Source of the DNA: a virus
Taxonomy: Duplodnaviria > Caudoviricetes
Direction: 5' to 3' (one strand)
Length of the DNA: 31,961 nucleotides
Virus record (IMG/VR): IMGVR_UViG_3300006105_000075
Span: 1-31,961 of that record
Part shown: piece by piece, positions 14,859-31,961 of the stretch
How positions within the stretch are numbered: position 1 is the first letter of the stretch
Layout: each line of letters starts with the position of its first letter
Program-made: the position numbers and the translations under genes
Notes under the pieces: generated by a model
The model's database searches: none
What the model saw: the letters and a program-made list of their open reading frames with translations, nothing else
Told to the model about the DNA's origin: nothing

Positions 14859-14896
14859 CCCGTTGGTGTTTCTACATCTGACGGGTTTTTTATTTT
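14859..14896 (+). terminator. Intrinsic terminator between convergent gene blocks
   Basis: CCCGTTGGTGT-TTCT-ACATCTGACGGG stem followed by TTTTTTATTTT. Confidence 0.8.
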
Positions 14897-15257
14897 ATAG
14901 TAATTCAATAGGTGGGGGTACATTTGCAAAAGATTCGTAATTATAATTGTCACCTTCTTTAATTGCAATATAAAGTATTGCCATATTTTTAAACAATACA
15001 TTTACTTCTTCATATTCTTGTTTGTCGGTAAACACTTTCATCCTTTTATCAAAAGTTGTATTATCGGGGAAATTGCTTTTTAAAATAGGATGCCTAGTAT
15101 ATTCACTCTGAATACTCATTATTATTTGTTTGTTGCCCTTTACAAACTTTCTATTTGGCATATAATATTTATGCAATCCGTACCAATTAGATTGAATATC
15201 ACTTTTACCGTATTCACATTTATAACCTATACTTATTGCGTGTTGTAGCCAATTCAT
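14895..15257 (-). CDS. Hypothetical protein
   Basis: 120-aa ORF, last gene of a coupled minus-strand operon. Confidence 0.7.
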   Translation of the reverse strand: MNWLQHAISIGYKCEYGKSDIQSNWYGLHKYYMPNRKFVKGNKQIIMSIQSEYTRHPILKSNFPDNTTFDKRMKVFTDKQEYEEVNVLFKNMAILYIAIKEGDNYNYESFANVPPPIELL

Positions 15258-15430
15258 TTGTAATGTTTATTATTGTAATCGTAAATTATACCGTACTGCC
15301 TTATCAACCTTTCTACTACCCTACGGGAAACAACACCCAAGTCTTTGGCAGCAGTAGTAAAACATTTATTTTTATTTAATGCTTTAACAGTTGCACGCCT
15401 TATGTGGTAGTCGATGTTGAGGGTAATCAT
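15254..15430 (-). CDS. Fis-family helix-turn-helix protein (58 aa)
   Basis: MITLNIDYHIRRATVKALNKNKCFTTAAKDLGVVSRRVVERLIRQYGI fits the Fis/HTH_8 pattern. ATGA overlaps at both ends. Not in the ORF track. Confidence 0.75.
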   Translation of the reverse strand: MITLNIDYHIRRATVKALNKNKCFTTAAKDLGVVSRRVVERLIRQYGIIYDYNNKHYK

Positions 15431-15672
15431 TTTAATTCTAAATTATTTTTTATATATAATGGTATTGCCACTTCTTTACCACCTTTAATCATACGCCAGC
15501 CGATGCGTTTATAATCCTGCCCGCCGAACCTTCGAAGTACAGTTACTACATAACTATATCTTTCTTCCTGCACTTTTATTTCAGTCGTGTAGTATTTGCC
15601 TAACTTATCATCTAGCTTACCTATGACAGTCGTGTTTTGTGGGCGATTGAGGTAAAAGATTTGTCGGCTCAT
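15427..15672 (-). CDS. Hypothetical protein
   Basis: ATGA-coupled to both neighbours. Confidence 0.7.
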   Translation of the reverse strand: MSRQIFYLNRPQNTTVIGKLDDKLGKYYTTEIKVQEERYSYVVTVLRRFGGQDYKRIGWRMIKGGKEVAIPLYIKNNLELK

Positions 15673-15857
15673 TTTTTAGACCATTTATTGTTAGCAAATG
15701 TATAACCCATATCTTCAAAAAACTTCTTAATAGTAGCAGGTTTCAATAACCCTGCTTTTAGCCTTATCATATAATTACTATAAGAACCTTGTGGCATAAT
15801 TCCGATATATGGCTTTACCTTTTGTTTCAATTCGTTATATACTTCTTGTTCTGTCAT
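15669..15857 (-). CDS. Small basic hypothetical protein (possible DNA binding)
   Basis: 62 aa, coupled to the downstream gene, AT-rich start region. Confidence 0.7.
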   Translation of the reverse strand: MTEQEVYNELKQKVKPYIGIMPQGSYSNYMIRLKAGLLKPATIKKFFEDMGYTFANNKWSKK

Positions 15858-15869
15858 AATTAAAATAAA

Positions 15870-16202
15870 TTAATCTGCTAAGTAAATAGTTGTAGGTCGC
15901 TTATAATGATAAGTTTCTTTTTTATTTGTTTCTTTATTTGTTTCAATTTCCCAATCATCAACTTCGCCTAAATGTGCGTTGTCTGTTTGCACGCAGTACA
16001 TTACTTGACACCCCATAATTAGCATACTTCCGATTTCAATAAACCAATTTGCATGGCTTCTTGAAGTATCAAACCCGAAGGTTTCTTTTGAATTATACAC
16101 TCCATTTAATGTTCCGTAAACAGTTTTATATTGCCTGCCATCTTTACCATAAAACCAATTACTTGTTGTAATTAAAACTTTTTTGCCTAAATACTCTTTC
16201 AT
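15870..16202 (-). CDS. Hypothetical protein
   Basis: Start moved to ATG 16202 (MKEYLGKK): it has an A-rich start region, and the ORF-track start at 16223 falls inside the promoter octamer. Confidence 0.75.
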   Translation of the reverse strand: MKEYLGKKVLITTSNWFYGKDGRQYKTVYGTLNGVYNSKETFGFDTSRSHANWFIEIGSMLIMGCQVMYCVQTDNAHLGEVDDWEIETNKETNKKETYHYKRPTTIYLAD

Positions 16203-16220
16203 GTTTATTATTAAAATATG

Positions 16221-16228
16221 CAAATATA
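16221..16228 (-). promoter_or_regulatory. Bacteroidota -7 promoter (TATATTTG) driving the minus-strand cassette
   Basis: CAAATATA on + reads TATATTTG on -. Confidence 0.7.
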
Positions 16229-16278: not shown

Positions 16279-18720
16279 ATGGCAGGTAAAAGAATTTATT
16301 TCACAACGGAAACACCTAATGACCAAGGGGGCGTAATTCCTAATAGTGTTATTGATTTTACCCGTTTTAATGCTAACCCCGTAGTCCTTAAAGAACACGT
16401 TTGGAATAGCGACCCGATAGGACTATGGACTGACATACAACTAGATAGTAAAGGATATAGCGGCGTGCCTGTTTTCCACAAACTAACAGAAGCAAGTAAA
16501 GAAACGGCGGCGTTATATGAGGGCGGATGGTTAAGGGCTTGCAGTATTGGTGGTGAAGCAATATGGGAAACAAACGCAGCAGGTCAATTGGTATTAGATA
16601 AACAAGGTAACAAGATTTGTAAAGTTTTCTATCTATACGAAATATCAATAGTAACGCTTCCAAGTAATGAAGATGCTACTCAAGTAGAACCCGTTGCATT
16701 GGCAGCGAAGATATACAATAGCGAAGAAATAGACACTTTGACAAGGACAATAACAACACTTTCGAGCAAGTATTCAATCACTAATAATAAAACAAACGAA
16801 ACAATGGCAGAAGAAGTAAAAGAAGTAGAATCCTCAAAAGTAGAGGAAACTACTACTACCACACTTGCAGCCGATACAAAAGGGACAGGATTACCTCAAT
16901 GGTTGAAAGACATCATTGGCTTAGGTGGTAAAGTTTCTTTCGGCAGTAAAGAATCATTTGAAGCAGATGCTCCAGCACCGAAAGGTACTCCTGATTCTAC
17001 ACTACCGAAAAAAGTAGATGTAGGGCAACCAAATGAGCAAGATGTTAAACTGAAAGCTAAAGCTGAAAAAGCTAAAAAGCTAGAGGAAGCAAAAAGTAAA
17101 TTAGACGAAGCCACCAAGAAATTGGAAGCCGCTAAGAAAAAAGCAGAAGCAGAAGATGCAAGTGCAGAAGATAAAGAAGCCTACGAGGCTTGCAAAACTG
17201 AAGCAGAAGATGCTATGAAGGCTTGTGATAAATATGCTGCCGAATCTGACGAAGATGAAGACGAAGACGGCGAAGGTGAAAAAGTAAAAACTAAGAACAG
17301 CGCAACTAAGCCCGTTCTTAAATCCGTTGAACAATTAAAAACAGAATATAAAATGGCAACCGCACCCGTAGTTACCGCTAAAGTAAAGGCTTACGGTGGT
17401 AAGACCTTTACACAGTTGATGGCATCAACTGACGAAAGAGACAAAGCACTTATTGACAGGGCTAAGAAAGGAGTTCAACACAATGAAGTTTCAGAATATG
17501 CCGCTGTATTAAGTTCAATCATTGCAGACCCTAAGTATAGGGCAGTAGTTGATAAAACCCGTATCCTTAACACCACAATGGCACAAATGCAAGACGCACA
17601 AGTCAACGTTAACGGTAGACAAGGTGGAGTTGGATTATCATCTATTATGGGCGAATTGCAAAGAGGTGAAGTTGCTGTATTGGGCGCAAATGGTCAAATG
17701 ACTACACGCACTACCCTTACTTCTACTGATGCTGCTTTAGCTAGTCCTGCATTGAATACGATTGAATGGCTGTCTTTAGCTATCTTCAATTTGTTCCCAA
17801 CAACAAGTTGGAAAAACGACATTCCAATGTTCGGCGCACAATACACAGGCGCAAACACAGGTACTATTTGGGCTAACATAGCCGCTGCACCAACAGTATA
17901 TAAAGGCAATAAACCTAGCACTAGTGTTTATACTTATAGCGATACTGCGGTTAGTTTGGCACTTACCCCATATTGGTTACAGCCTATGCAATGGACACCA
18001 TTAACAATGCACCAACTACGTTACGACCAAATGGGTACAGGTTGGGCGCAAGCGTTCATGGTGTTAAATACTGCAATTGACGATACATTGCTTTATACAC
18101 TTGCATCAACAGTTCCTGCAAGTTCAATCGTAGCAACTAGCGGTATTAGTGGTTATCAAACATTACCTCAAACCGTTCAAATCGGCGGTTCAGCAGCATA
18201 TAACAAATTCTACTACAACCAAGCATATGCAGGTTCACTTGTTGCACCAGTATTAAATGACATTGTAAACTTAGAGCAACTTTATGCAGCGCAAAACTTG
18301 CAACTAGAAGGAGAAAAAACTACTTTAGTAGCTGACCCTATTATGATTGCATCTTTGAACAAAGACCCTGAAACCAAATCATTGCTTACCCGTTGGGTAA
18401 ATGATAACGGTGGTGGAACATTTGTTAAGTTCAAAAACACAATCTTGAACGAAAGAAGTAGAACAATCATAGTTAACCCTTCTGCAAGTAACCAAGTAGT
18501 AGACCCAACAGGTATCATACCATCAACTGCAATAAGTGCAGGTTTGAGTTTCGTACCTTCACAAGTAGGTATGGGTATTGGTATGCTGGATGTGTTTATG
18601 GTTCAAGACCCTGTAAACTACGGATATACAATGAGTGCTGATATTCGTATGGGTATTGTTCCATTGCGTGCTAACTTTAACGGTACTGCTATCCTTAATT
18701 ACGGCGCACCAAACGTTTAA
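16279..18720 (+). CDS. Prohead protease-scaffold-major capsid protein fusion
   Basis: N-terminal HK97-type protease motifs NPVVLKEH, LRACSIG and LYEISIVTLPSNEDA. Central K/E/A coiled coil with an acidic tract. C-terminal ~330-aa capsid-sized domain, followed by a terminator. Confidence 0.85.
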   Translation: MAGKRIYFTTETPNDQGGVIPNSVIDFTRFNANPVVLKEHVWNSDPIGLWTDIQLDSKGYSGVPVFHKLTEASKETAALYEGGWLRACSIGGEAIWETNAAGQLVLDKQGNKICKVFYLYEISIVTLPSNEDATQVEPVALAAKIYNSEEIDTLTRTITTLSSKYSITNNKTNETMAEEVKEVESSKVEETTTTTLAADTKGTGLPQWLKDIIGLGGKVSFGSKESFEADAPAPKGTPDSTLPKKVDVGQPNEQDVKLKAKAEKAKKLEEAKSKLDEATKKLEAAKKKAEAEDASAEDKEAYEACKTEAEDAMKACDKYAAESDEDEDEDGEGEKVKTKNSATKPVLKSVEQLKTEYKMATAPVVTAKVKAYGGKTFTQLMASTDERDKALIDRAKKGVQHNEVSEYAAVLSSIIADPKYRAVVDKTRILNTTMAQMQDAQVNVNGRQGGVGLSSIMGELQRGEVAVLGANGQMTTRTTLTSTDAALASPALNTIEWLSLAIFNLFPTTSWKNDIPMFGAQYTGANTGTIWANIAAAPTVYKGNKPSTSVYTYSDTAVSLALTPYWLQPMQWTPLTMHQLRYDQMGTGWAQAFMVLNTAIDDTLLYTLASTVPASSIVATSGISGYQTLPQTVQIGGSAAYNKFYYNQAYAGSLVAPVLNDIVNLEQLYAAQNLQLEGEKTTLVADPIMIASLNKDPETKSLLTRWVNDNGGGTFVKFKNTILNERSRTIIVNPSASNQVVDPTGIIPSTAISAGLSFVPSQVGMGIGMLDVFMVQDPVNYGYTMSADIRMGIVPLRANFNGTAILNYGAPNV

Positions 18721-18728
18721 ATAAACTA

Positions 18729-18760
18729 AGCCCCTGATGTAATAGTCGGGGGCTATTTTA
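18729..18760 (+). terminator. Intrinsic terminator after the capsid gene
   Basis: AGCCCCTGAT-GTAATA-GTCGGGGGCT followed by ATTTT. Confidence 0.7.
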
Positions 18761-18785: not shown

Positions 18786-19271
18786 ATGAAGAAGTTATTA
18801 ATTATCGCTTTATTATTTATTTCAGCTAGTTCTTTCGCACAGACAAGAACATACACGGCTAACAACATCCAACAAGGTCAATACATTGACTTAGGTGGTA
18901 CTCCAACTACCCCAACGGATAGTTTGCAAGTAACCGATTCTTTGGCTTACATAGTGCCTATTACCCACTTAAATGTAAATGACGTATTTCATACTTTTTA
19001 TTGGCAAAAAGTAGGCGCAGGTACAGCTACTTTGACTATCAATTATTTCCAAAGTAACGACAATGTAAACTATTTCGCAGTACCCAAAGGGGCGGCTCAA
19101 AGTGCATATACAAAAACTTTCACCCTTTCGGCTTCAACTCCTAATTATGTTTCATTTGCAGCCGACACGGCATTATTGCAAGGCCGTTATTTGAAAATTC
19201 AATGTATTACATCAAGCACTGCAAGCGTAAAGGGATATTTGAGCCATAGGGTAAAGACGAATATTAAGTAA
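18786..19271 (+). CDS. Secreted beta-rich protein in capsid-decoration position
   Basis: Signal peptide MKKLLIIALLFISASSFA|QT and a beta-strand-rich mature part (QSNDNVNY, GRYLKI). Located directly after the capsid gene. Confidence 0.75.
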   Translation: MKKLLIIALLFISASSFAQTRTYTANNIQQGQYIDLGGTPTTPTDSLQVTDSLAYIVPITHLNVNDVFHTFYWQKVGAGTATLTINYFQSNDNVNYFAVPKGAAQSAYTKTFTLSASTPNYVSFAADTALLQGRYLKIQCITSSTASVKGYLSHRVKTNIK

Positions 19272-19291
19272 CCACAAAAAAAATAAAACAC

Positions 19292-19669
19292 ATGAGTAGC
19301 ATTCAATTTGAAAGACTGCACGAGCATAACTTAAAGTTATTAAAGGCAAGTGTAAAGAAGTTTGGAACGGTTTGGATTCACGGGGATGGCAATATTTACA
19401 ATAGCAAAGAAAATAGCGACATCGCTCAAAAGTATGTAAATACACCTTTCACTCCGCCAACATACAGAGCTAAGTTTACCACTTTAGACAAGTTGCCTAC
19501 TACATTGGAAGAGTTAGAGATAGCATTACAAAATGGTAGGATGAATGAAATTAAAGACGAGAAAATAGCAACGGTTACAAACAGTTTGCCTACTGTTTCA
19601 TTGGATGACGAAGAAGAAGAAATAACAGTTATTAAAGAAACAAAGCCTACCGCAAAGGCAGGTAAATAA
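19292..19669 (+). CDS. Hypothetical protein (head/tail region)
   Basis: 125-aa ORF with an A-rich start region and a charged low-complexity C-terminus. Confidence 0.75.
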   Translation: MSSIQFERLHEHNLKLLKASVKKFGTVWIHGDGNIYNSKENSDIAQKYVNTPFTPPTYRAKFTTLDKLPTTLEELEIALQNGRMNEIKDEKIATVTNSLPTVSLDDEEEEITVIKETKPTAKAGK

Positions 19670-19680
19670 TACTTACAAAA

Positions 19681-21084
19681 ATGGCTGAACATTTAATTAA
19701 AATTAGTGTAGTAAACAATCAAACAGGCGTTGCACCTTCAAGTGATGGCGTCATGATGATGTTTATTCACGCAACTGCAATAGGCAGCACATTCGCACTA
19801 GATACGCCGTACTTGCTTACTAAGTTAGCAGATGCGACAGCATTGGGGATTACAGCTGCTAACGATGCTACCAATGCAATAGCTTTATTCCAACAAATAA
19901 ACGACTTCTATGCAGGTGGCACAAATGACGGGTTATTATTGTGGATTCAAGGCGTAGCAAAAGCTACTGCAATGGCTACATACGTTGCAGGTACAGCCTT
20001 TGCAAACGGTGTAAGGGCAACAAGCGCAAGCAGCCCAAGCAATAGAGCTAAGATGATAGGTATATGCTATAAATTGCCAACAGCAACACAAAGCGCAACA
20101 GATTTCCCTGCCGATGTTCCAGCGACTATCACAGCACTACAAGCTACACAAGTAAGTCTATTTGCACAAGGCTATCAATTTAGCGCAATAGTAGACGGCT
20201 ACAATATGAGTACAACTGTAACACCTTCAACAATTGGTGATATTAGTTTAAAATTGTGTAGTTCTATTAGTTTATGTATAACAGGAACACAACCTAACGG
20301 TGTTAGTTCGGTAGGTTTGGCTTTGTCACGCTTTGCACAAATATCTATCGGTCACGGTTTCGGCGCAGTTTCAGATGGCAGCGTAGCTAACACAGCGTAT
20401 TTAACTAAGTCTTTGGCGATACAAGCAAGTGGCACATTGACAGTAGGTAAAGTTTACACCGTTTACAATGGTAGTGTGGTTTACAATAGTGTTACTTATG
20501 TTAGTGGAACGGATTCACAACCTACACAATTTACGGCGGTAACAGGGTTCACAACTTTCACTACTCCAGACACGGGTTATTGCGTAGAAGCGTTTGCACC
20601 AGTTGTTAATTTAACACCAAGTAACGCAAATGGCACAGGTGACATAGACCAATTAGGACTTAAACAATATATGTTCTTACGTCCATGGTTTAACAAAAGC
20701 GGGTTCTATTGGAATGACGGCGCAACTTGTACCACTTCAACACTTGCACTTAGTACGCAAGAGTATAACCGAGTAGCAAATGCTTTGAGTGCCGATGCGT
20801 TGGCTTTTTTCATTAATCAAATTGGAAGTAATCAGCCATTGGATACTAAAACGGGCGCGATTGCTCAAAATGTTCTTAATAGCCTTCAACAACAATTTTA
20901 CGATGAATATATTTCGCCGTTAAGTGTTGTAAATGGCGGCACAGGCGATTTGACAGACGGTAAATTGATTTTGACCGCTCCTAACTTCAACAGCACAAAG
21001 ACAATGAACTTTCAGTTAGACATAGTACCTACTCCAATATTGGGAAGTGTTACGGGTACTATTCAATTTGTTTCAACTTTATAA
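19681..21084 (+). CDS. Tail sheath protein (DUF2586-like)
   Basis: 467 aa. L...QYMFLR.....SGFYWND..T......EYNRV pattern, C-terminal IVPTP....VTGTI.F, and position before the tube gene. Confidence 0.8.
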   Translation: MAEHLIKISVVNNQTGVAPSSDGVMMMFIHATAIGSTFALDTPYLLTKLADATALGITAANDATNAIALFQQINDFYAGGTNDGLLLWIQGVAKATAMATYVAGTAFANGVRATSASSPSNRAKMIGICYKLPTATQSATDFPADVPATITALQATQVSLFAQGYQFSAIVDGYNMSTTVTPSTIGDISLKLCSSISLCITGTQPNGVSSVGLALSRFAQISIGHGFGAVSDGSVANTAYLTKSLAIQASGTLTVGKVYTVYNGSVVYNSVTYVSGTDSQPTQFTAVTGFTTFTTPDTGYCVEAFAPVVNLTPSNANGTGDIDQLGLKQYMFLRPWFNKSGFYWNDGATCTTSTLALSTQEYNRVANALSADALAFFINQIGSNQPLDTKTGAIAQNVLNSLQQQFYDEYISPLSVVNGGTGDLTDGKLILTAPNFNSTKTMNFQLDIVPTPILGSVTGTIQFVSTL

Positions 21085-21095
21085 AACAATAACAA

Positions 21096-21512
21096 ATGCC
21101 TAATTATAACGCATTAATTATAACAGCAGCCGAGTATAAGGTAGCATGGAATATACCAGGTACGGCTGTTTTTCCTTTACTTACTGTAAACGAAGTTGGT
21201 TGGACTGAAACTCAAGAGGGCGAGTTAATCTATTCAGTTGGTGATGTTAACCCTATTGGTAACAAAGGAAACGCACTAGCAGTAAAGGGTAAGATAACTA
21301 TTCAAGAGGGTGAATTACAGGCTATTTTAACAGCAGTAGGCGTTAATAGCGTAACTTTAGTTCCCTCAAGTACTATTGCAGTAGTAAGCCTACAAAATGC
21401 AGCATCTTACACATTTACTCAATTAGTATTCACATCTTCCGCAATTAGTGTAAAAGCTAAGGATAAGGAGAGCATGAGAAACATTGACTTTACAGCGTTA
21501 GCAGTAGTTTAA
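21096..21512 (+). CDS. Tail tube protein
   Basis: 138-aa beta-rich protein between the sheath and the chaperones. Confidence 0.75.
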   Translation: MPNYNALIITAAEYKVAWNIPGTAVFPLLTVNEVGWTETQEGELIYSVGDVNPIGNKGNALAVKGKITIQEGELQAILTAVGVNSVTLVPSSTIAVVSLQNAASYTFTQLVFTSSAISVKAKDKESMRNIDFTALAVV

Positions 21513-21528
21513 ATTAAATACACAACAC

Positions 21529-21927
21529 ATGGAAAAGGTTTTCAAAAAGGAAATTACTTTCCTTAGTAAGCAGCCCGTAATGGAAGCGACTAAGGATAAT
21601 AAAGTAGGGGAAATTATCGAAGTTGAAGTTACGAAAGAAGCGGTTTTTAAGGATTTAAGCCGTACAGATAGAACACAAAGGGACTTAGTGTTTTCTATCA
21701 TGGGAACAATGAAGCAAAGCGGAACTAATAAGGCTACTATTGACAGCGAAGGGATAGCAACATTGACAGATAAAGCTATTGAATTATTGTTGATTACCGA
21801 TGCTAAGGGCTTTACAGTTGGGGATAAGACAGAATTTTTAAATGACAATATCGCTGTTTTGAACTTTGGGCTTTGGTTCTTTTCAGAGAAAGTTACCCCT
21901 TTTTTTGCTCAATTGAAAGTGAATTAG
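21529..21927 (+). CDS. Tail assembly chaperone (gpG-like)
   Basis: Located between tube and tape measure, with a slippery sequence near the 3' end. Confidence 0.75.
   Translation: MEKVFKKEITFLSKQPVMEATKDNKVGEIIEVEVTKEAVFKDLSRTDRTQRDLVFSIMGTMKQSGTNKATIDSEGIATLTDKAIELLLITDAKGFTVGDKTEFLNDNIAVLNFGLWFFSEKVTPFFAQLKVN
21897..21906 (+). other. -1 programmed frameshift site of the tail chaperone (CCCTTTTTTT)
   Basis: Heptamers C CCT TTT and T TTT TTT. The -1 frame is open to 22133, where it abuts the tape measure start. Confidence 0.8.
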
Positions 21928-22133
21928 AAGAAATAAATTACAGCCACGAAACGGCTAAAACTAAATTAATCGCTCGAAATGCTGTTTTTTACAATAAAAC
22001 AATGTTTCGGGCGTTTTTGATGTATAGCGGCAAAGAGTTGGAAGATATGACATTACAGGAGTATATGGATTGTCAAATAATGTTACCCGAAGTATTGAAA
22101 ATTATTCATGCACCTTTTCAAAAAACTGACTAA
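21900..22133 (+). CDS. Frameshift extension of the tail chaperone (gpGT-like)
   Basis: -1 frame ORF containing ELEDMTLQEY, typical of gpT-like segments. Confidence 0.7.
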   Translation, partial: FFCSIESELEEINYSHETAKTKLIARNAVFYNKTMFRAFLMYSGKELEDMTLQEYMDCQIMLPEVLKIIHAPFQKTD

Positions 22134-23800
22134 TGGCAGATTATGGCTTTGATATAAATGTAGGCGGCGATATTCTTATGCAGTTAGCTAAGATAAACGA
22201 AAGTATTTCCGTAATGGGTACTAAATCCATTCAAGAAGTGGAGAAAGCAGAAAGCGCATTTGCATCTATGGGTGAAAAAATGTCGGAAACATTTAGCGGC
22301 ATTAAAAATATGCTTTTATCTGGTTTGGGGTTAAGTGCTTTATTTGAAGGGTTCGAATTTATAAAAGAAAGTAAAGGCGTTTATGATGAGTTGCAAAAAG
22401 CCACAACTGACTTAAATCAAACCATGAAAACAATGGGTGGGTCAGTAGGTGTAAGTACTGAACACCTTTCAAAGATGGCGGAGGAAATGAGCAATGTAAC
22501 TGTTTTTACAAAATCATCTATCATTTCGGCTCAGGCTCTGATGTTGACCTTTGGTAATGTAAAGGGGAAGCAATTTGAGGAAGGTATGCAATCGGCAGGT
22601 GATTATGCTCAAAAGTTTTTTAAAGGTGATTTATTAGAAGCTTCCAAATCTTTAGGTATAGCATTGGATGACCCTATTAAGGGTATGGCTAGGTTGCACC
22701 GTACGGGGGTAAGTTTTACCGACCAACAAAAAGAACAAATTAAGAACTTACAAGAGGCAGGGAAATTAACAGAGGCGCAAGAAATTATATTAAAAGAAAT
22801 AAGAAGGGAGACGGGTGGGCAAGCTGAAATGTTTGCAAAGACAGATGCAGGACAAATTGCAATGGCTAAAAAAGGATGGGAGGAAATACAGGCATCCATA
22901 GGGGGGGTTGTTAATAAAATACAGGCTGCATTTGTGCCAGCAATGATGAGGGCGCAACACGCAATTGAAGCAGGTATTGAATGGATGCGTAAACATAAAG
23001 ACGTATTAAAAGAAATTATTTTAGTTATAGGGCTATTTACCGCTGCTTTAGCTATCAATGCAACAATAGCAGCATTTACAGCAGCTCAAGAGGCTATACT
23101 AGCATTTTCATTTGCGAATACCGCATTAGGTGCGTTTACTGCAATGGTAGCAACAGAGGGGCTAGGTGCTGCAATGTTAGCGTTACCAATAACGTGGGTT
23201 GTTTATGGCATCGTTGCAATAGTAGCTGCATTGATGTATTGTTGGGACAACTTTAAAGGCTTTCGTGAATTTATGGGCGGCTTGTGGGGCGGAATATTGC
23301 AATATATCAAACTTGTAATATTAGGATATCAAACATTGGGAAATGTTATAGGAGATATTTTTCACGGTAACTTTTCAAAGGCAATAAAGGACGGCAAAAA
23401 AGGATTGGCAGATTTAGCAACAGGATTTACTACGGGAATGGTAGATGCTGTTAAAAAAGGTGCGGATGCAGCAGGAAATAGCAAATTCAAATTTGGAGAT
23501 GTTATTCATAAGTTTTTACCATCAAGAACAAACGCAGGAGACCCAACCGCAACGGGCGATGGTAAAAAAGGTGAAGGTGGGGCAAATCAAACCGCGCAGT
23601 CAGCAATGAACACCTCCGCCCTTAGTGGTGCAAGTGGTGGATTAGGACAAGCTAAAGTTATTAACATTACTTTTAAAGATGCTTTCCAAAAAATTACAAC
23701 AACGGATAACAAACAGTTACCACAGAAAGGAGAGGAAGCAGTAGAGCAAATGATTAGGGCTATTAACAATATTGCATACAACGAAGGACAAACACAATAA
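22133..23800 (+). CDS. Tape measure protein
   Basis: Helical A/G/K-rich 555-aa protein with LG.ALDDP.KG...L.R.GV.FT motif, hydrophobic segments and YCWDNFKGFR. Confidence 0.88.
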   Translation: MADYGFDINVGGDILMQLAKINESISVMGTKSIQEVEKAESAFASMGEKMSETFSGIKNMLLSGLGLSALFEGFEFIKESKGVYDELQKATTDLNQTMKTMGGSVGVSTEHLSKMAEEMSNVTVFTKSSIISAQALMLTFGNVKGKQFEEGMQSAGDYAQKFFKGDLLEASKSLGIALDDPIKGMARLHRTGVSFTDQQKEQIKNLQEAGKLTEAQEIILKEIRRETGGQAEMFAKTDAGQIAMAKKGWEEIQASIGGVVNKIQAAFVPAMMRAQHAIEAGIEWMRKHKDVLKEIILVIGLFTAALAINATIAAFTAAQEAILAFSFANTALGAFTAMVATEGLGAAMLALPITWVVYGIVAIVAALMYCWDNFKGFREFMGGLWGGILQYIKLVILGYQTLGNVIGDIFHGNFSKAIKDGKKGLADLATGFTTGMVDAVKKGADAAGNSKFKFGDVIHKFLPSRTNAGDPTATGDGKKGEGGANQTAQSAMNTSALSGASGGLGQAKVINITFKDAFQKITTTDNKQLPQKGEEAVEQMIRAINNIAYNEGQTQ

Positions 23801-23802
23801 TA

Positions 23803-24327
23803 ATGGCTATTAGTATAAATAACCCGAATGCGCACCAAAGTACACCAAGTAATCCTCCACAGTTGCAGGTGACTTACAATAATGTAGGCGCAGACCCTAC
23901 GAATTACCCAGCGTTAGTAGTTATTAATGGTGTAACATTGCCAAAGGATGCGCTTATAACAATTGATGGTAAAAAGCTATTAGTTAATTCTAAAATATTA
24001 GACGGCGTAAATGTTACCGAAAGGATATTAAGAGAGCCTTATAAGATTGAGATTGAATGTGTGTTTAGAAAGACCAATGCAGTAGGCGAAATTAATTATG
24101 ATGGTACTTTTTGGATATTCGACCAAGATAGCCTCAACACAGCGTGGACTAAAATATGGATACCAGATAGTGTGTTAAATATTACTAATACTTATTTAAA
24201 CGCATTGGGTGTAAGTGAGATAATTGTAGAAAGTGTTAATCCTACAATTTCGAGAGGCAGCACAAATATAGGGTTCAAGATTTCAGCAATTGAAAACGTA
24301 GCGGGGCAAACGCTTATAATATCATAG
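23803..24327 (+). CDS. Tail tube initiator-like protein (P2 gpU / DUF6046-like)
   Basis: Directly after the tape measure; V.E.I....Y.I.I and N..LNALGV..IIV.S patterns. Confidence 0.6.
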   Translation: MAISINNPNAHQSTPSNPPQLQVTYNNVGADPTNYPALVVINGVTLPKDALITIDGKKLLVNSKILDGVNVTERILREPYKIEIECVFRKTNAVGEINYDGTFWIFDQDSLNTAWTKIWIPDSVLNITNTYLNALGVSEIIVESVNPTISRGSTNIGFKISAIENVAGQTLIIS

Positions 24328-24328
24328 T

Positions 24329-25441
24329 ATGTATTTTAACGCACATCTTACGGTAACAATTAACGGCAATACTATAAAGACTATTTGCAGCGTTAGTAAA
24401 AAGCATGACGGCCACTCTTTAGGTAGTGAGTGCGATATTACGTTGCCTATGAATTGCGTGATACAGTACAAAGATGGAACGCATGATAAACTAACACAAT
24501 ACACGGTAAATACTCAAGCAGCATTCGGCGTTGGTTCTACTGTATTAGTAACGGCTAATTATGACACTTACAACGAACAAACTATATTTGAAGGCTTTAT
24601 AACTGATTTTGTTTTCGGTAATCCTATAAAGATTAAATGTATGGATTATCAATACTTTTTTAATTTAGGAATATTCGGGCAAGAACGGGGGGCAAGTGTA
24701 AAGATTAATAAAAAAAAGAAGTCACCAGTAATAAATACTTACGGCTGCCATTATGCTAGTATCACATTGAAAGACCTATTAACAAATATTATAGGCTTCG
24801 TAAATGATACAATAGACATAAAGTCAACAGATGCCGAACACGTTACTTTAGTGCTACCAATACCTGACATTGAATTAGTAAACATTACTTTTTCAATGAT
24901 GACACCTGCCTCTATATGTCAATACTTTATTAAAGAGTTAGGTTTGGTATTAACATTGAATGGCACTAACTTATATTGTAATGTTGCATCAAATACAACG
25001 GATGTTATTAACTATGCAACAAATAGAAACGTGATAGTGTCCGACCTTCAAAAACCTACTTCTACATTCCAAACATATAAGGTTAAGGCGTGGTTTTATC
25101 AGCCAACAGGAAAGAAAGATAGTATTGAAGTAGGTGATACAAACGGGCAACAAAGGGACGTTTATTTTTACAGAGTGAAACAAGATGCAGCCCTTTACCT
25201 AAAAATGGCAACAGAAGCACTAAACAAAGTGCGCCAAATGCGTTTTAACGGTTCAATTACTACTTATCTTTACCCCGAACCGATACTATTTGCAAAGGCT
25301 GTTTATACTGATATTCGTTATCCTGCAAGAAGTGGCAATTATGTTATAACAGCTATTGAAACAACAATAGACCAAAGTGGTTATAGGCATAAATTAAAAC
25401 TAGCATATTTGACTGACTTAAATGATACAACTAATTTATAA
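24329..25441 (+). CDS. Baseplate hub protein (P2 gpD / Mu gp44-like)
   Basis: 370 aa; C.ITLP, FEGFI, IKCMD, G.ITT...P and G.YVI..I motifs, plus synteny. Confidence 0.75.
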   Translation: MYFNAHLTVTINGNTIKTICSVSKKHDGHSLGSECDITLPMNCVIQYKDGTHDKLTQYTVNTQAAFGVGSTVLVTANYDTYNEQTIFEGFITDFVFGNPIKIKCMDYQYFFNLGIFGQERGASVKINKKKKSPVINTYGCHYASITLKDLLTNIIGFVNDTIDIKSTDAEHVTLVLPIPDIELVNITFSMMTPASICQYFIKELGLVLTLNGTNLYCNVASNTTDVINYATNRNVIVSDLQKPTSTFQTYKVKAWFYQPTGKKDSIEVGDTNGQQRDVYFYRVKQDAALYLKMATEALNKVRQMRFNGSITTYLYPEPILFAKAVYTDIRYPARSGNYVITAIETTIDQSGYRHKLKLAYLTDLNDTTNL

Positions 25442-25989
25442 TGGATAACGAACAAACGGCGAATTTAACGGATGCGTTTTATAGGGCTATCAAGGCAACA
25501 ACTAAATATAGTAACATTTGCGATGGTACTGTAATTGCGGTTGATGAAACAGCCTATACAGCCGACATTCAGTTAGATATTGACGGGCAACCCGTTTATT
25601 ATGCCGTGCCTTTATCTGTCCTTATTGGGAGTGTTGGGGGGGTTGTTACTATCCCCGTTATTGGTAGCGATTGCCTTATAACGTTTAGAGATGGCAACAA
25701 AGGCAGACCTCAATTATTATTTTGCAACCAAATTGATAAATTGTTAGTAAATTGCAACCTTGTACAGTTTAACGGTGGTGAAAACGGGGGGATGGTAGAA
25801 GTTTTAAAGCTAATTGATAGGTTGAATAAAATAGAAAATTTACTAAACAGTTTCTTTACACTTTACAACAGTCACACACACGTTGTTAGTAGTGTAGGTG
25901 CGCCAACGGCACTACCCGTACCGTTAGAGACACAAACGTTAACACCAACACAAAGGGGGGATATTGAAAATACAAAAATTACGCAATAA
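25441..25989 (+). CDS. Baseplate spike (P2 gpV / Mu gp45-like)
   Basis: OB-fold-like P.IGS.C segment and C-terminal YNSHTH iron-binding HxH. Confidence 0.82.
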   Translation: MDNEQTANLTDAFYRAIKATTKYSNICDGTVIAVDETAYTADIQLDIDGQPVYYAVPLSVLIGSVGGVVTIPVIGSDCLITFRDGNKGRPQLLFCNQIDKLLVNCNLVQFNGGENGGMVEVLKLIDRLNKIENLLNSFFTLYNSHTHVVSSVGAPTALPVPLETQTLTPTQRGDIENTKITQ

Positions 25990-26195
25990 TGAAAATAAAA
26001 AAAGTAGTATATTGGTTGATAGTTTTGTTATTAACTTATTTAATAGTTGTTATTTTTAATTATTTTAAAATTAACGATAGTTATGTTATATTTTTTGGGG
26101 TTATTTCACAATCTATTTACATCCAATATTTAAAAAATAGAATATTAAAGTTAGAAAATGGAATCAAAGAATTAATTAACAAACTTTCAAAATAA
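25989..26195 (+). CDS. Small AT-rich membrane protein (two hydrophobic segments), moron-like
   Basis: 68 aa, TAATG-coupled on both sides, visibly more AT-rich than its neighbours. Confidence 0.65.
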   Translation: MKIKKVVYWLIVLLLTYLIVVIFNYFKINDSYVIFFGVISQSIYIQYLKNRILKLENGIKELINKLSK

Positions 26196-26503
26196 TGTTC
26201 GACATACTTTTTGACATATTAGCAAGGGATATAAGTTACGCCAACGGGGACTTTGTTACCACTACTAACGCCTCTACGCAAAACGGTGGCATCATTGAAA
26301 GGTCACGTTGTGCAATATTAACTAACCCAATGTTAGGCGTAGGACTAGAGGACACTATTAACAACAAGTCGCAAGAGGCAGCCGTACAGATGAATAGATG
26401 GAAGCAGCAATGTATAAATGACGGGGCAACGATAGCAACGTGGACTAATACAACAGGGCAAAACGGTGTATTAAACATTTCAGCAAACGTGAGCTATGAG
26501 TAG
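26195..26503 (+). CDS. Baseplate wedge / sheath initiator (gp25/gpW-like)
   Basis: GDFV and P.LGVGL motifs, 102 aa, located after the spike. Confidence 0.7.
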   Translation: MFDILFDILARDISYANGDFVTTTNASTQNGGIIERSRCAILTNPMLGVGLEDTINNKSQEAAVQMNRWKQQCINDGATIATWTNTTGQNGVLNISANVSYE

Positions 26504-26837
26504 TATTTATATAGTGCAGCAAGGGATGAGCATTAATGACGTTGTATTGAACGCCACAGGTAGCCTTATAAACCTAAATGCAGTACTAGATGCCAATAGC
26601 TTTACAGATTGGACACCGACATTAACAGTCGGGCAAGAGATAACAATACCAGATACAGTTACAAAGGATTTAAACGTTATAGGACAATTGACAACGTATC
26701 CAGCAGTGAATAATTTAACAGATTTGATACTTTCTAGCATAAACACAATATTTGATACATTACCTTTGTGGATATTATCCACAAGCTATTGGAATGACAA
26801 CGGATTATGGGTAGATACGGCATTTTGGATAGATTAA
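26496..26837 (+). CDS. LysM-like baseplate protein (P2 gpX-like) with a Trp-rich C-terminal extension
   Basis: Y.VQQG.SI.DV.L...GS......L.AN.......L.VGQ.I.IP LysM-like pattern. Confidence 0.7.
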   Translation: MSSIYIVQQGMSINDVVLNATGSLINLNAVLDANSFTDWTPTLTVGQEITIPDTVTKDLNVIGQLTTYPAVNNLTDLILSSINTIFDTLPLWILSTSYWNDNGLWVDTAFWID

Positions 26838-26849
26838 ACTTTTAATAAT

Positions 26850-27227
26850 ATGGCACAAATAGTTATAAACAATGGTGATAGCGGTTTAGTAGTTAGAAAC
26901 GCCCTAAACGGTATGTTTGCCGAACTTTACGGCGCAATAGCTTTACCTATTAAAATAGCAGGATTAACGGGAAATTACACACAGGTAATTTCGGCTAATA
27001 CGATAGTGGTTAGTGGTGCGGTTCGTTGGATTAGTGGCAGCGTTACCGTTAAGATAGGCTCAACGGGTGGTGGGAGTGATATAATGCCATCAACTGTGTT
27101 ATCTTCAGCTAATTTAGTACCCTTAATTATCGGACAATACTACAACAGCGCAGGTAATATCTACATAACTTTAACAGGTACAGGAAGCGTAAACGTTAGA
27201 TTTGACCAAATTACAAACTACAACTAA
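26850..27227 (+). CDS. Baseplate/fibre adaptor-like protein
   Basis: N-terminal GDSG..VR.ALN.MF.ELY resembles T4 gp9/gp10-type N-terminal trimerisation segments; beta-rich C-terminus. Confidence 0.5.
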   Translation: MAQIVINNGDSGLVVRNALNGMFAELYGAIALPIKIAGLTGNYTQVISANTIVVSGAVRWISGSVTVKIGSTGGGSDIMPSTVLSSANLVPLIIGQYYNSAGNIYITLTGTGSVNVRFDQITNYN

Positions 27228-27229
27228 CA

Positions 27230-27991
27230 ATGGCTAGCACTCAATCAATTATACAATCAAACCTAAACGCTTTAGGCTTTACAAACCCCTCGCAAACGGG
27301 GATATTTGAGAAAGTGAGCGAAGCATTGGGAAACGTTATAGACACAACATTAACAGAATTTACCAATACAGAAGCCACAATAGTAAGCACTATAACCGCT
27401 AAGAATTACGGAAAGGCAGGATACTATACAGGCTATGCTTTAGCGTTTCAATACGGCGATAGTCTTTCAATTGATAGTAACGGAAATTATTACTACCCTA
27501 CTATTGACACAACTAAACAAATAATTAAACAAGCGGCATTTAGTGCAACAAGTGGCGGGGATTTATTCTTAAAGGTGGCAAGTGCGGATATTACGGGAAC
27601 GACTATGCCATTGACATTATCACAGTATAATGCTTTTGTGGCGTATATGCAAAACTTCGAGATACCGGGATTGCCCGTTAACTATATTTCATCGAATGCG
27701 AATGTATTGTACTTTGTAGCATCTTGTACCTATTACAGTAGCTTCGATTTACCTACATTGACAGCTAATATAAACACTTATCTTACTTTGTTTATGAATA
27801 GCTTTGCGTTTAATGGTACTTTCTTCACGGGTGACTTAGAAACATATATACAGGCAAATGTAGCAGGGGTAAGAAACTTTTATTTATCACAAACACAAAT
27901 AGACGGCGTATCTTTTACGGGTAGTGTTAATTTGAGTGCAGGATATTTTAACTATAACGGTAGCAACGTAATTAATTACAATGGCATTTAG
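27230..27991 (+). CDS. Baseplate J-like wedge protein
   Basis: Y...ALAFQYGD.L, IIKQAA, LKVA, FNG.F....L...IQ...GV and AGYF motifs, plus synteny. Confidence 0.72.
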   Translation: MASTQSIIQSNLNALGFTNPSQTGIFEKVSEALGNVIDTTLTEFTNTEATIVSTITAKNYGKAGYYTGYALAFQYGDSLSIDSNGNYYYPTIDTTKQIIKQAAFSATSGGDLFLKVASADITGTTMPLTLSQYNAFVAYMQNFEIPGLPVNYISSNANVLYFVASCTYYSSFDLPTLTANINTYLTLFMNSFAFNGTFFTGDLETYIQANVAGVRNFYLSQTQIDGVSFTGSVNLSAGYFNYNGSNVINYNGI

Positions 27992-28469
27992 AAACATCAA
28001 TTATAGAAAGTTATTGTTTGAAAGTCTAAGGAATTTCTTTAGCGTTACTGCTATTGGCAGTATATCAACTTTTTTTAAATATTTTACCGCTTTTGTACAG
28101 CCACTAGAAGCACCTTTTACAACGTTTACAACTTTTCGCAATAAAGAACTATTAATATCGCAATGTAAGTGGCAAGTGGGTCAATTGGCAAATGTGTTAA
28201 ATATATTGTATGATGCTACTTTAAAAAGAATTTACTGCACACAGTCGACTTACAATATATTAACAGCCCCCGAATTTGCGTACACAAGTACAACTTATTG
28301 CAGCGACTTCGGTAGTACACCGTTAATATTTGCAAGTGAATTTAACGACAAAGTAAACACAACAGCGTTTACTATTAATGTGCCTACAAGCGTGTACACT
28401 AGCGACTTATTGGCAACGGTTAATCAAATAGCTTTTGATGGTTCAAATTTTACAATTAATCAATTTTAA
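27981..28469 (+). CDS. Baseplate wedge protein (P2 gpI-like)
   Basis: QV..L..VLN..YD....RIY and F.I.VP patterns; follows the J-like gene. Confidence 0.62.
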   Translation: MAFRNINYRKLLFESLRNFFSVTAIGSISTFFKYFTAFVQPLEAPFTTFTTFRNKELLISQCKWQVGQLANVLNILYDATLKRIYCTQSTYNILTAPEFAYTSTTYCSDFGSTPLIFASEFNDKVNTTAFTINVPTSVYTSDLLATVNQIAFDGSNFTINQF

Positions 28470-28472
28470 TTT

Positions 28473-29330
28473 ATGAGTTTATTTCAGTTTCCCGCAATAC
28501 GCAAATCTTATGCAGGGCTACAAAATCCTTTATTTAGTAGTGATTTAATCGTTGCAGAACAAACCGCTTACGACGGGCTTATTGCTTCTTTAGGGTTACA
28601 GCCTACCGACTTTGCTATTGTTAGCGGATTAACTTACGTTACAGGAACGCCTAACACTTACACAACGGGGGTGATATATTTTAATGGGTATTTCTATTAT
28701 GTAGCTGCATTATTTGCAGAGGGGCAATATTTACAGCCAACTACAACCGATACAAATCCCGAAAATTTTGGGGATAGTGTAAGCCGTAATACTTACACAT
28801 TATTTACCGCTACACCTACAAGCACATCAACAGGGGCAACGCCACAGTTTGCAGGCAATATGAATAGTTATCGCATTGACAATAAAACGCTAAAGGCTAG
28901 TATTTCGGCTATTACAGCGGATTATATCACTTCCACTTTACTAGCTACCGCCCTATCTGCTTACGTTGCAAAGGCAGGGGCTACAATGACGGGTGCGCTT
29001 ACTTTAAATGCAGATCCTACAACAGCACTAGGGGCAGCAACTAAGCAATACGTTGATAATAACGCCGTAATAATTTTGGCAAAGGGTTACACACATATAG
29101 GGGATATATATTCGGGATTACAACATTACGATGTAGCATTAGGGACAACATTAACAACGACAGCATATAAAGTATTTTTAACAATTGTTAACAATAATTC
29201 AGTAGATGCTAGAACAACATGGTATATTGATGCTACAAACCAAACTACTACATCATTTAGAATATATATTGCGGAGGCCACCAGTAGTGTACAAGACATT
29301 TACTTTGATTGGATAGTTATTGCACGATAA
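28473..29330 (+). CDS. Baseplate-attached (short) tail fibre protein, no signal peptide
   Basis: G.TMTGALTL.ADPT.AL.AATKQYVD fibre motif and a C-terminal TTTSF......DWIVI beta domain. Confidence 0.72.
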   Translation: MSLFQFPAIRKSYAGLQNPLFSSDLIVAEQTAYDGLIASLGLQPTDFAIVSGLTYVTGTPNTYTTGVIYFNGYFYYVAALFAEGQYLQPTTTDTNPENFGDSVSRNTYTLFTATPTSTSTGATPQFAGNMNSYRIDNKTLKASISAITADYITSTLLATALSAYVAKAGATMTGALTLNADPTTALGAATKQYVDNNAVIILAKGYTHIGDIYSGLQHYDVALGTTLTTTAYKVFLTIVNNNSVDARTTWYIDATNQTTTSFRIYIAEATSSVQDIYFDWIVIAR

Positions 29331-29356
29331 TTTTTAAAATATACTAATATTGCAAA

Positions 29357-31450
29357 ATGAAGTTTTTATTAACATTACTTTTATGCGCTTCAATTGCTTA
29401 CGGGCAAACGATAATAACTCAACCTTATGCGTTTCAAAAATACATAACCGTTAAGGATAGTAGCAATTTACAAGGTCGTTTAACCATCCCAACTGATACC
29501 ACAACAAACAAGAATGGTATTGCACAAATTGGCACATCTATATACACGGGCAACGGTACTTATTGGACTTTAGCGAGTGGGGGTAGTTCAAGTTCTTTCA
29601 ACAACGGCGGTAATTCATTTGGTTCAACTGCTATAATAGGGACGAAAGACAATAACGACTTGAAAATAATCAATAACAATACTAATTATTGGACTTTCGG
29701 CAAAACAGGCACATTAAGTAACAGTGGCGTTTCTTTTGATTTTGCAGGTGACGTAACCGCATCGAGTAGCGCAGCCATAACAGGAGGTGCGATATATCCT
29801 ATTAATTACTTATCATTGCCCGACACCAACAGAAACGTTGCTTATAATTTGATAGGCACTCATAATGGTAGTTTATTTGCTCAAATAGGTTCGGGGCAAT
29901 ATTTTAGGCAAGTCTTAATGGCAAAAGATAGTAGTTTATACGTTACCCCTACTCAATTAACGGCAGCATCTTACACCCTGCCACAAGCTACTAGCAGCGT
30001 ATTAGGTGGCGTTAAGATAGGAAGTAATATAAACGTAAGCAGTGGAACGATTAGCCTTAATAACAGCAATGTGATAGCAGCATTGGGGTATATGCCTATA
30101 CAGTTGTCTTCATTAAGTGCCACTCGAAATGTAAGTTCGGGTAGTATATTTTCGTATAATAATCTTACTGGGGCTTACAATTTCGATACAACTAAACTAT
30201 TAACGCTTACTTCTATAAGTGCTACAACTCCAATGACATTTAACACTTCGACAGGAGTTATTGCGATAGGGCAATCATCTACTAGCACTAACGGGTATTT
30301 AAGCAGTACTGATTGGAATACGTTTAATGGAAAAATTAATTTATCCTCTCTATCTGCAACTCGCAACGTTTCAACAGGGTCGATATTCACTTACAACAGT
30401 TCAACGGGGGCTTATAATTTGGATACGACTAAATATCAAGCACCAATAAGCGCAGGAACGGATATAACGATAGCTAGTAATGTAGTTTCAGCCGACACCA
30501 CAACAGGCGCAACTAAGTTAGCTACGCAAGGGTATGTTACGAGGAATAGTGGGAGTGGGGGATTGACGGGCGGATTTACGGTATCCTCAACAGCAGCCCC
30601 TATATTATTTGGGAGTGTTACCAATAGTAAAATTAGCGGTTCACAAAGTAGGATAACAATTGATACATCAAAATCAGTAGCTACCATAATATTAGACACT
30701 GCTGGCGGTTCATTAGTTACTACTACAACCCCGCCCTCAATAGATTTTGGTAATTCTACAACTACATTAGGAAATTTAGGTAAATACCCAAAATTAATTT
30801 TGGAGCATAACTCAGGTGCTCTTTCGGGTATTTGTACAGGTAGCGGCAGTTTGGGATATACCGCACAAAATTCCCACTATTGGTACACAGGGGGGTATAA
30901 TTCACCTACACAAACAATGTCATTAGACAATAGTGGTAATTTACAAGCTTTTTCTTTCACCGCTACCCCTTCATACTTATCTAAAGGATTTGAAATTTAC
31001 GAAAGTGGGCTTATCATTCAATTGTATAGAAGCGGCTCTTTTAATGGAATAAATTCTGGCATTTACGGTGTAAGTTTTGCCAATAGTGGAACGGTAGCAG
31101 GGCAGATGTTTAGTACAGGTAGATGGTATTTCGGTGCTAGCCCTAGTGACGATGGGGTGAATATCGCTCAGTTCAATGGTTCTATAAAACTAGAAACAGC
31201 AGGTAATAAAATCAACATAGCCACAGGTACAAACGCCTCTATCGGTACAGCCACACTTTCATCGGGAACGGTAACGGTAAGCACTACGGCGGTAACTTCA
31301 TCTAGTAAAATATTCGTTACCCACGCAGGAAGTAGCATAAGTAATGCAGGCACACTATATATAGGAACAATTTCAGCAAATACATCATTTATTATTAACT
31401 CCACTAATTCTAGCGATAACGACAGCATAAATTGGTGGATTGTGAACTAA
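29357..31450 (+). CDS. Long tail fibre-like protein carrying an N-terminal Sec signal peptide
   Basis: MKFLLTLLLCASIAYG|QT. S/T/G-rich body with fibre motifs YTLP.AT.SVLGGVKIG, NGYLSSTDWNTFN.K and LATQGYV. Located at the end of the tail module. Confidence 0.75.
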   Translation: MKFLLTLLLCASIAYGQTIITQPYAFQKYITVKDSSNLQGRLTIPTDTTTNKNGIAQIGTSIYTGNGTYWTLASGGSSSSFNNGGNSFGSTAIIGTKDNNDLKIINNNTNYWTFGKTGTLSNSGVSFDFAGDVTASSSAAITGGAIYPINYLSLPDTNRNVAYNLIGTHNGSLFAQIGSGQYFRQVLMAKDSSLYVTPTQLTAASYTLPQATSSVLGGVKIGSNINVSSGTISLNNSNVIAALGYMPIQLSSLSATRNVSSGSIFSYNNLTGAYNFDTTKLLTLTSISATTPMTFNTSTGVIAIGQSSTSTNGYLSSTDWNTFNGKINLSSLSATRNVSTGSIFTYNSSTGAYNLDTTKYQAPISAGTDITIASNVVSADTTTGATKLATQGYVTRNSGSGGLTGGFTVSSTAAPILFGSVTNSKISGSQSRITIDTSKSVATIILDTAGGSLVTTTTPPSIDFGNSTTTLGNLGKYPKLILEHNSGALSGICTGSGSLGYTAQNSHYWYTGGYNSPTQTMSLDNSGNLQAFSFTATPSYLSKGFEIYESGLIIQLYRSGSFNGINSGIYGVSFANSGTVAGQMFSTGRWYFGASPSDDGVNIAQFNGSIKLETAGNKINIATGTNASIGTATLSSGTVTVSTTAVTSSSKIFVTHAGSSISNAGTLYIGTISANTSFIINSTNSSDNDSINWWIVN
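30104..30433 (+). repeat. Internal 31-codon duplication in the fibre gene
   Basis: LSSLSATRNVSSGSIFSYNNLTGAYNFDTTK (30104-30196) vs LSSLSATRNVSTGSIFTYNSSTGAYNLDTTK (30341-30433). Confidence 0.9.
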
Positions 31451-31460
31451 ATTTAACAAT

Positions 31461-31826
31461 ATGAAATATTTATCAACCATTCTTGCAGCATTATTAATTG
31501 GTGCAACTTCTTACGGACAAACAGTGGACACTACTTTAAAAGACTGTACTTGTGCAGCAGTCAATAGCGTGACAATATCTCACGGCTTCCCGATAATCAC
31601 CGACACTATCAATCACATTGGCTTCTTTAACTATACCGATTCGCCTCGTGACAGTTCTTGCGTGGTTAATTTCACGGTTAAAGCCAATTCAAACAATCAA
31701 AATATCATATTCAATACTTACACACTTACTAAGAGTGAGTATGCGGCGTGGAATACTGATATTGACTTGATAGTAGACATCAAAAACTATCTATCCCGTA
31801 GCGGCATTCAATTAACATTCAAATAA
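31461..31826 (+). CDS. Secreted protein in tail-fibre assembly/accessory position
   Basis: Signal peptide MKYLSTILAALLIGATSYG|QT; located directly after the fibre gene. Confidence 0.72.
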   Translation: MKYLSTILAALLIGATSYGQTVDTTLKDCTCAAVNSVTISHGFPIITDTINHIGFFNYTDSPRDSSCVVNFTVKANSNNQNIIFNTYTLTKSEYAAWNTDIDLIVDIKNYLSRSGIQLTFK

Positions 31827-31846: not shown

Positions 31847-31961
31847 ATGTTACACCACATTAAACAGACAGCAGACGGATTTGCAACACTAATAGGGGGA
31901 TTAGGTTTTTTTGCAGTATCGGCAAATGTAGCCGATTGGACTATGAAGATTATCTCATTTG
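31847..31961 (+). CDS. Start of a probable holin-like membrane protein (3'-truncated by the window)
   Basis: MLHHIKQTADGFATLIGGLGFFAVSANVADWTMKIISF is hydrophobic and follows the fibre genes. Confidence 0.45.
   Translation, partial: MLHHIKQTADGFATLIGGLGFFAVSANVADWTMKIISF

Follow-up and report, generated by a model that had tools for sequence, protein, structure and literature searches.

Signal Peptides Followed by Glutamine on Virion-Position Genes of a Contractile-Tailed Phage Suggest Exported Accessory Virion Proteins

Gene Organization and Signal Peptides

The window analyzed here is the entire IMG/VR record IMGVR_UViG_3300006105_000075, a virus contig of about 32 kb (31,961 nucleotides), and our subject is three genes in structural positions whose products start with a signal peptide followed by glutamine. 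The post-capsid, fibre, post-fibre, capsid, sheath, baseplate J-like, short fibre-like and holin-like genes of this section lie on the plus strand. The post-capsid gene (18786..19271) encodes a 161-aa protein with a signal peptide at residues 1–18 (18786–18839), Gln19, and a mature part modeled as a single jelly roll. The fibre gene (29357..31450) encodes a 697-aa protein with a signal peptide at residues 1–16 (29357–29404), Gln17, a conserved N-terminal module and a mosaic Ser/Thr-rich shaft. The post-fibre gene (31461..31826) encodes 121 aa with a signal peptide at residues 1–19 (31461–31517) and Gln20.

Signals were called by our own rule and not by SignalP, the rule being a basic n-region, hydropathy of at least 2.4, small residues at −3 and −1, and Gln at +1. 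A sequence-only reading of this DNA had claimed a signal peptide and then Gln-Thr in the open reading frames (ORFs) starting at 18786, 29357 and 31461; all were found there, and each combines a basic n-region with a hydrophobic h-region and a small-residue site, after which Gln-Thr follows with Gln at +1 (3/3). This observation is confirmed and lies far beyond chance. The N-terminal 8-residue hydropathy was 2.88–3.69 in 5 of the 35 window ORFs scored, namely the three signal genes, a lipoprotein gene (13505) and a small membrane protein gene (25989), while the other 30 reached 1.9 at most. The lipoprotein-type gene (13505–13876, 123 aa, Cys after the h-region) lies between the neck and tail-terminator genes; locus L005 has it too, and most of the relatives listed lack it at this position.

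The tail sheath gene (DUF2586, 19681..21084) and the baseplate J-like gene (27230..27991, named by position) served as controls without a signal peptide, and the short fibre-like gene (28473..29330, named by position) also has none, so the earlier statement that these neighbors lack signals holds on inspection. Initiation past the hydrophobic segment, which the same reading had named as counting against it, was not supported by a scan of in-frame start codons. No ATG, GTG or TTG stood in frame ahead of codon 47 in the post-capsid gene or anywhere in the fibre gene's first 80 codons, and downstream initiation was rejected for both. It is unlikely for the post-fibre gene, which has an in-frame GTG as codon 22; relatives show V, I or L at this position.

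The window codes for a terminase, a Mu-type portal, a protease-scaffold-capsid ORF, a DUF2586 sheath, a tape measure and baseplate proteins, and the phage is therefore taken to be contractile-tailed. A Bacteroidota host is inferred because the signals are of the Gln type; the search for a host gave a single weak match to a Bacteroidales metagenome-assembled genome (E 2e-5), which a profile search did not recover. Upstream of the post-capsid gene, one ORF without a signal peptide (16279..18720) joins a prohead protease (weak Peptidase_S78 match, E 0.0013), a scaffold-like linker and the presumed major capsid protein (about residues 480–813). The capsid part had no Pfam or PHROG match, and its identity is presumed because of position, size and conservation, the C-terminal 330 aa being conserved in 12 phages. 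In 12/12 relatives aligned, a single ORF of 770–900 aa carried the protease, the charged scaffold-like linker and the presumed capsid protein as a fusion. Downstream of the post-fibre gene, the contig ends within the start of a small membrane protein gene, likely a holin (31847..31961). In the close relative L039, a lysis cassette of membrane ORFs, a lipoprotein and a lysozyme-family endolysin follows directly downstream.

The Post-Capsid Family

Among 51 post-capsid relatives, the h-region showed 27% identity to the query and the mature part 59%, and M1, K2, A18 and Q19 were conserved in at least 90% of the 52 sequences despite the varying h-region. A distant set of 66 sequences was built from the query and 77 profile matches, with fragments and long outliers left out. 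A signal-like N-terminus was kept in 64/66 of these (signal and Gln in 47, signal without a Gln call in 17, none in 2). For the comparison of gene classes, 1156 ORFs from 70 loci and the window were collapsed to 675 clusters. Signal and Gln were found in 15/20 non-redundant post-capsid homologues, the remaining 5 having hydrophobic N-termini on inspection, and in 0/279 representatives of 17 core structural or packaging classes. The short-fibre class gave 1/20, and that one was a 977-aa fibre. Such a survey of homologous genes had been proposed in the sequence-only reading, and its outcome bears out the claim: the signal peptides are a real, family-wide feature, confined to the post-capsid and fibre slots.

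A head gene lay directly upstream of the post-capsid gene in 29/29 loci having an upstream ORF (33 loci examined, near-copies included). Twenty-four of these head genes were like that of the window, 3 encoded an HK97-type major head protein (phrog_617, E 1.6e-43) and 2 belonged to phrog_7231, a head-and-packaging family taken here as a capsid protein. Three unrelated head proteins thus adjoin the family. In a tree of 21 post-capsid proteins, two members beside other capsids did not group together; the support was weak, and for this reason we make no claim of gene transfer.

Between the capsid and post-capsid genes lies a GC-rich hairpin (18729..18754, plus strand, z −4.3), which was not listed by a terminator scan. 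Similar GC hairpins were found at this place in 5/5 related loci folded, with z from −2.3 to −5.5. The hairpin is likely a terminator or an RNA-stability step-down and may lower post-capsid expression.

The AlphaFold2 model of the post-capsid protein was a confident single jelly roll, with a mean predicted local distance difference test (pLDDT) score of 88.6. Structure searches with this model gave no standout cement or decoration match, which excludes nothing, and the sequence had no match in Pfam or PDB, including none to PF21190. A complex prediction with two capsid-domain and two post-capsid copies scored 0.00 and is evidence neither way.

Fibre and Post-Fibre Genes

The 697-aa fibre carries a K1-lyase_C domain at residues 626–696 and shares a segment with crAss-like phage proteins. 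Its N-terminal module was conserved across 16 first fibres, and 12/12 of its mosaic relatives had a hydrophobic leader before the Gln. Of 34 baseplate loci, 21 were inspected, and 19/21 had genes with signal and Gln after the short fibre; of the other two, L067 had post-short-fibre signals without Gln and L062 ended too early. Peptidase_S74 was matched in 1/19 exported-type proteins scanned (E 1e-8), most being without a match, and 3 long fibres among 16 proteins scanned matched PHROG virion, tail spike or tail fibre families. Positional and sequence marks of a tail fibre or spike were found here, namely the post-baseplate slot, the conserved N-terminal module, mosaic C-termini and fibre domains. 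Three loci held 3–4 consecutive genes with signal and Gln each (L046:11277–20658, L056:12262–19614 and L060:12226–20764). Some proteins of these runs exceeded 1300 aa and carried at least 20 of the glycosylation motifs described below, and one combined PKD repeats with a PHB-depolymerase-like esterase region.

In the post-fibre family, Q20 was invariant in the alignment and D23-T24 and D48-T49 were kept down to 22% identity. The model was weak (pLDDT 62.7), with weak matches to small uncultured-phage proteins, and the protein is likely a fibre partner or chaperone. A likeness, seen by eye, to a freshwater phage family without signals (L050, L101, L103) failed BLAST, hidden Markov model and profile tests and was dropped. 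The signal-less post-fibre protein of L050 (16091–16525) has a fourfold proline-rich tandem repeat, which is single in L101–L103.

Scans of the three window proteins and of the relatives covered gave no Pfam or NCBIfam match to a C-terminal type IX secretion system (T9SS) sorting domain. Export of the three proteins by T9SS was rejected on this ground.

O-Glycosylation Motif

In Bacteroidota, O-glycosylation modifies a D-S/T-hydrophobic motif only in non-cytoplasmic proteins, according to the portion of PMC12871550 consulted. We scored the motif as D[ST][AILVMT] and compared observed with shuffled counts; the signal found in exported proteins is an addition to the sequence-only reading. Counts were 50/9.0 (observed/shuffled) in post-capsid representatives, 205/72 (2.9-fold) in large exported proteins and 28/9.5 in small exported proteins, and 290/248 (1.2-fold) in core proteins. 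Glu and Asn variants of the motif showed no enrichment in the exported sets. The sequence mark of a Bacteroidota O-glycoprotein, a motif above chance in a protein with an export signal, was therefore present, and modest in the window alone.

In the 66-sequence post-capsid set the motif was positionally fixed and about 5-fold enriched (204/40). It started at D45 in 65/66, at D51 in 57/66 and at D127 in 38/66 sequences, with S/T exchange seen, and D45 and D51 were the sole near-invariant mature columns of a family with 20% mean column identity. The fibre motifs near D34 and D47 lie inside the conserved N-terminal module. When the first 60 mature residues were removed from 26 exported fibres, 149/62 remained, and 11 signal-less fibre-slot proteins gave 22/23.5.

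Signal-Bearing Proteins of Cultured Phages

We examined the GenBank records of five Cellulophaga phages, taking tandem mass spectrometry (MS/MS) status from the record notes. Signal and Gln were present in phi39:1 gp25–26 (L074:16625–20172) and in phi10:1 gp91–94 (gp91–95, L076:41847–48878), and for all of these the records note detection in virions by MS/MS; phi10:1 gp95 bears the signal and no such note. Six signal-bearing proteins of these two phages are thus annotated as virion proteins by MS/MS. They are analogues, not homologues, of the three window proteins, and gp91–95 and gp25–26 are ready experimental models.

Other Features of the Window

A SNF2-type helicase is fused to an N6/N4 DNA methylase at 834–2987, and a Mu F-like head protein is fused to a PBECR2 nuclease-like domain at 11841–12890, the two being separate ORFs in some relatives. 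A short inserted minus-strand ORF block with reversed GC and AT skew lies just upstream of the capsid gene (14895–16223). Two overlapping tail-assembly-chaperone-like ORFs (21529–22133) precede the tape measure gene, an arrangement that commonly goes with a programmed frameshift.

Proposed Mechanism and Alternative Explanations

We consider it probable, if by no wide measure, that the three proteins are outer accessory virion parts that are exported through Sec and signal peptidase I (SPI), mature in the periplasm and dock at lysis. Its parts differ in strength. Export, as predicted from the signals, is very likely and a virion role is likely; periplasmic maturation and docking are proposals. 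The sequence-only reading had proposed exported head decoration and fibres and is partly supported; its export part is well supported, and its link to the virion is backed by the post-head position, the fibre hallmarks and the Cellulophaga MS/MS annotations. By position and modeled fold, the 161-aa protein is a candidate head decoration or cement.

The three proteins would pass through the host Sec system, be cut by SPI before the Gln, and have this Gln cyclized to pyroglutamate by a host glutaminyl cyclase. A host periplasmic system would O-glycosylate the D-S/T-hydrophobic motifs, which may have been selected for in this family. Since no T9SS tail was found, the matured proteins would be stored in the periplasm, and docking onto particles would follow when holin and endolysin have allowed the compartments to mix. 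By its conserved N-terminal module the fibre would attach to the baseplate or to the short fibre, and the short fibre-like protein (28473..29330) is a candidate docking site made in the cytoplasm. The jelly roll would bind the head, perhaps at low copy because of the hairpin after the capsid gene.

Several observations weigh against this reading. The three window proteins are known from sequence, models and relatives alone, the host is inferred from the signals, no cultured close relative of the phage was found, and searches among GenBank phages gave no match to the post-capsid family. The fold matches of the post-capsid protein were generic jelly rolls (Z up to 9.9). Its Atlas neighbors were viral clusters, two of them with 11–14% Bbp16 members, a low-share lead, and the hairpin 3' of the capsid gene speaks against a cement in one-to-one ratio. 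Signal-less long fibres occur in L057 and L064, additionally or as the main type. Such signals were absent from the structural genes inspected of phi18:1, phi38:1 and phi46:1 and from 19 genes inspected of crAss001, and MS/MS detection does not separate virion parts from co-purifying proteins. For the motif, homologues in the statistics are not independent, the window's three proteins alone gave modest values (p 0.014, 0.037 and 0.16), and the signal-less baseplate J gave p 0.034 among 30 window genes tested. Other signal-less unclassified ORFs gave 254/189 (1.34-fold), and the fibre enrichment was uneven, with 18/26 above expectation without the N-terminal module (sign test p 0.076). In the seven Cellulophaga signal proteins the motif was depleted (6/18.5; 0/500 shuffles as low), and 27 signal-less Cellulophaga proteins gave 47/50.3. 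This depletion means that glycosylation cannot explain export in general. Departures from chance, in either direction, occurred only in signal-bearing sets, which suggests that signal-bearing proteins meet periplasmic machinery, glycans being sought in some lineages and avoided in others.

The proteins might instead be exported and never join the virion, acting as envelope modifiers, exclusion factors, decoys or lysis-released enzymes that reuse fibre modules. Every signal-based observation fits this equally well, some members have enzyme domains (GDSL, PHB-depolymerase-like), the hairpin after the capsid gene agrees with it, and Gln-rule genes of Porphyromonas gingivalis phages are interpreted so in the portion of PMC10367356 consulted. 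We nevertheless regard it as unlikely, since the post-capsid gene directly follows three unrelated head genes, the window has no other long-fibre candidate, six proteins of the same type are annotated as virion proteins by MS/MS, and attached fibres typically combine a conserved N-terminal module with exchanged C-termini. Exported virion parts for which glycans play no role, export serving folding or sequestration and the motifs being structural strand caps, are more unlikely still. The D45 and D51 motifs do lie at or in strands of the post-capsid model, the Cellulophaga virion proteins avoid the motif and several exported fibres lack it. However, enrichment was seen in unrelated folds (the jelly roll, the post-fibre protein, and fibre shafts without the N-terminal module), Asp was specifically needed, and signal-less proteins in the same slot showed no enrichment. 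Motifs are generally near-fully substituted once outside the cytoplasm, as stated in the consulted portion of PMC12871550.

It is highly improbable that the leaders are uncleaved membrane anchors or are removed in the cytoplasm, assembly remaining cytoplasmic. Export of the three proteins is indeed predicted from sequence, 17/66 post-capsid relatives had no Gln call, and prohead-protease cleavage has been proposed for signal-like capsid leaders of P. gingivalis phages (consulted portion of PMC10367356). Gln at +1 after a small-residue site, the variable h-region and motif counts that leave chance only in signal-bearing proteins speak against it.

Returning to export followed by docking at lysis, glycosylation is likely a lineage-specific gain; more generally, export may help by letting proteins fold outside the cytoplasm or by holding adhesive fibres away from particles still incomplete. 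It is possible, with chances we put slightly short of even, that Bacteroidota tailed phages include a widespread class which builds the virion core in the cytoplasm and the head decoration and fibres in the periplasm, with pyroglutamate and host-specific O-glycans, and joins them at lysis, the glycan coat recording the last host. The usual view is that tailed phages are assembled entirely in the cytoplasm, and a periplasmic assembly line, if true, would insert a further step into the life cycle of Caudoviricetes. Infectivity would be tied to host secretion and glycosylation, opening new routes to phage resistance, and particle surface chemistry would depend on the last host. The cultured Cellulophaga phages allow a direct test, and their virion proteomics may already contain the N-terminal peptides.

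Comparison with Known Systems

The sequence-only reading knew of no described pathway of this kind, and the literature searched in full text, mostly outside subscription journals, likewise yielded no account of tailed phages that export parts of their virion. There was no precedent in the consulted portions of PMC10172136, PMC6199706, PMC5776456, PMC12014285, PMC11946311, PMC12494034 and bioRxiv 10.64898/2026.09.13.751334, papers that deal with HFTV1, the proteomics of marine phages, crAss001, Hankyphage, Salinibacter and Cellulophaga.

The Bacteroidetes Q-rule, a Sec/SPI signal followed by Gln at +1 with a periplasmic cyclase, matches the signals reported here; in the consulted portion of PMC5837995 it is described for host envelope and secreted proteins and not for parts of tailed virions. 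The nearest published case is the same signal type in phage genes of P. gingivalis prophages, where five genes of unknown function are read as outer-membrane modifiers; the consulted portion of PMC10367356 connects them neither with fibres or decoration nor with glycosylation. General O-glycosylation in Bacteroidota concerns the same motif in signal-bearing proteins, whereas the putative substrates here are viral; the word "phage" has 0 occurrences in the main text of the review PMC12871550, as consulted.

Cellulophaga phi39:1 gp25–26 and phi10:1 gp91–95 have signal and Gln in the same tail slot, six of them MS/MS-annotated, but differ in motif depletion and in having no post-capsid jelly-roll gene, and their GenBank records are silent on signals. 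Bbp16 (PF21190), which we take to be the capsid cement of BPP-1, is likewise a small single jelly roll beside the capsid gene; the window's post-capsid protein differs in its signal peptide and has no sequence-level match to it. Filamentous phage coat proteins are virion proteins that use host export, as proposed here, but their assembly takes place at the membrane without lysis. The Soc, Hoc and long fibres of T4 bind finished particles and thus share the late docking proposed here, whereas they are made and added in the cytoplasm.

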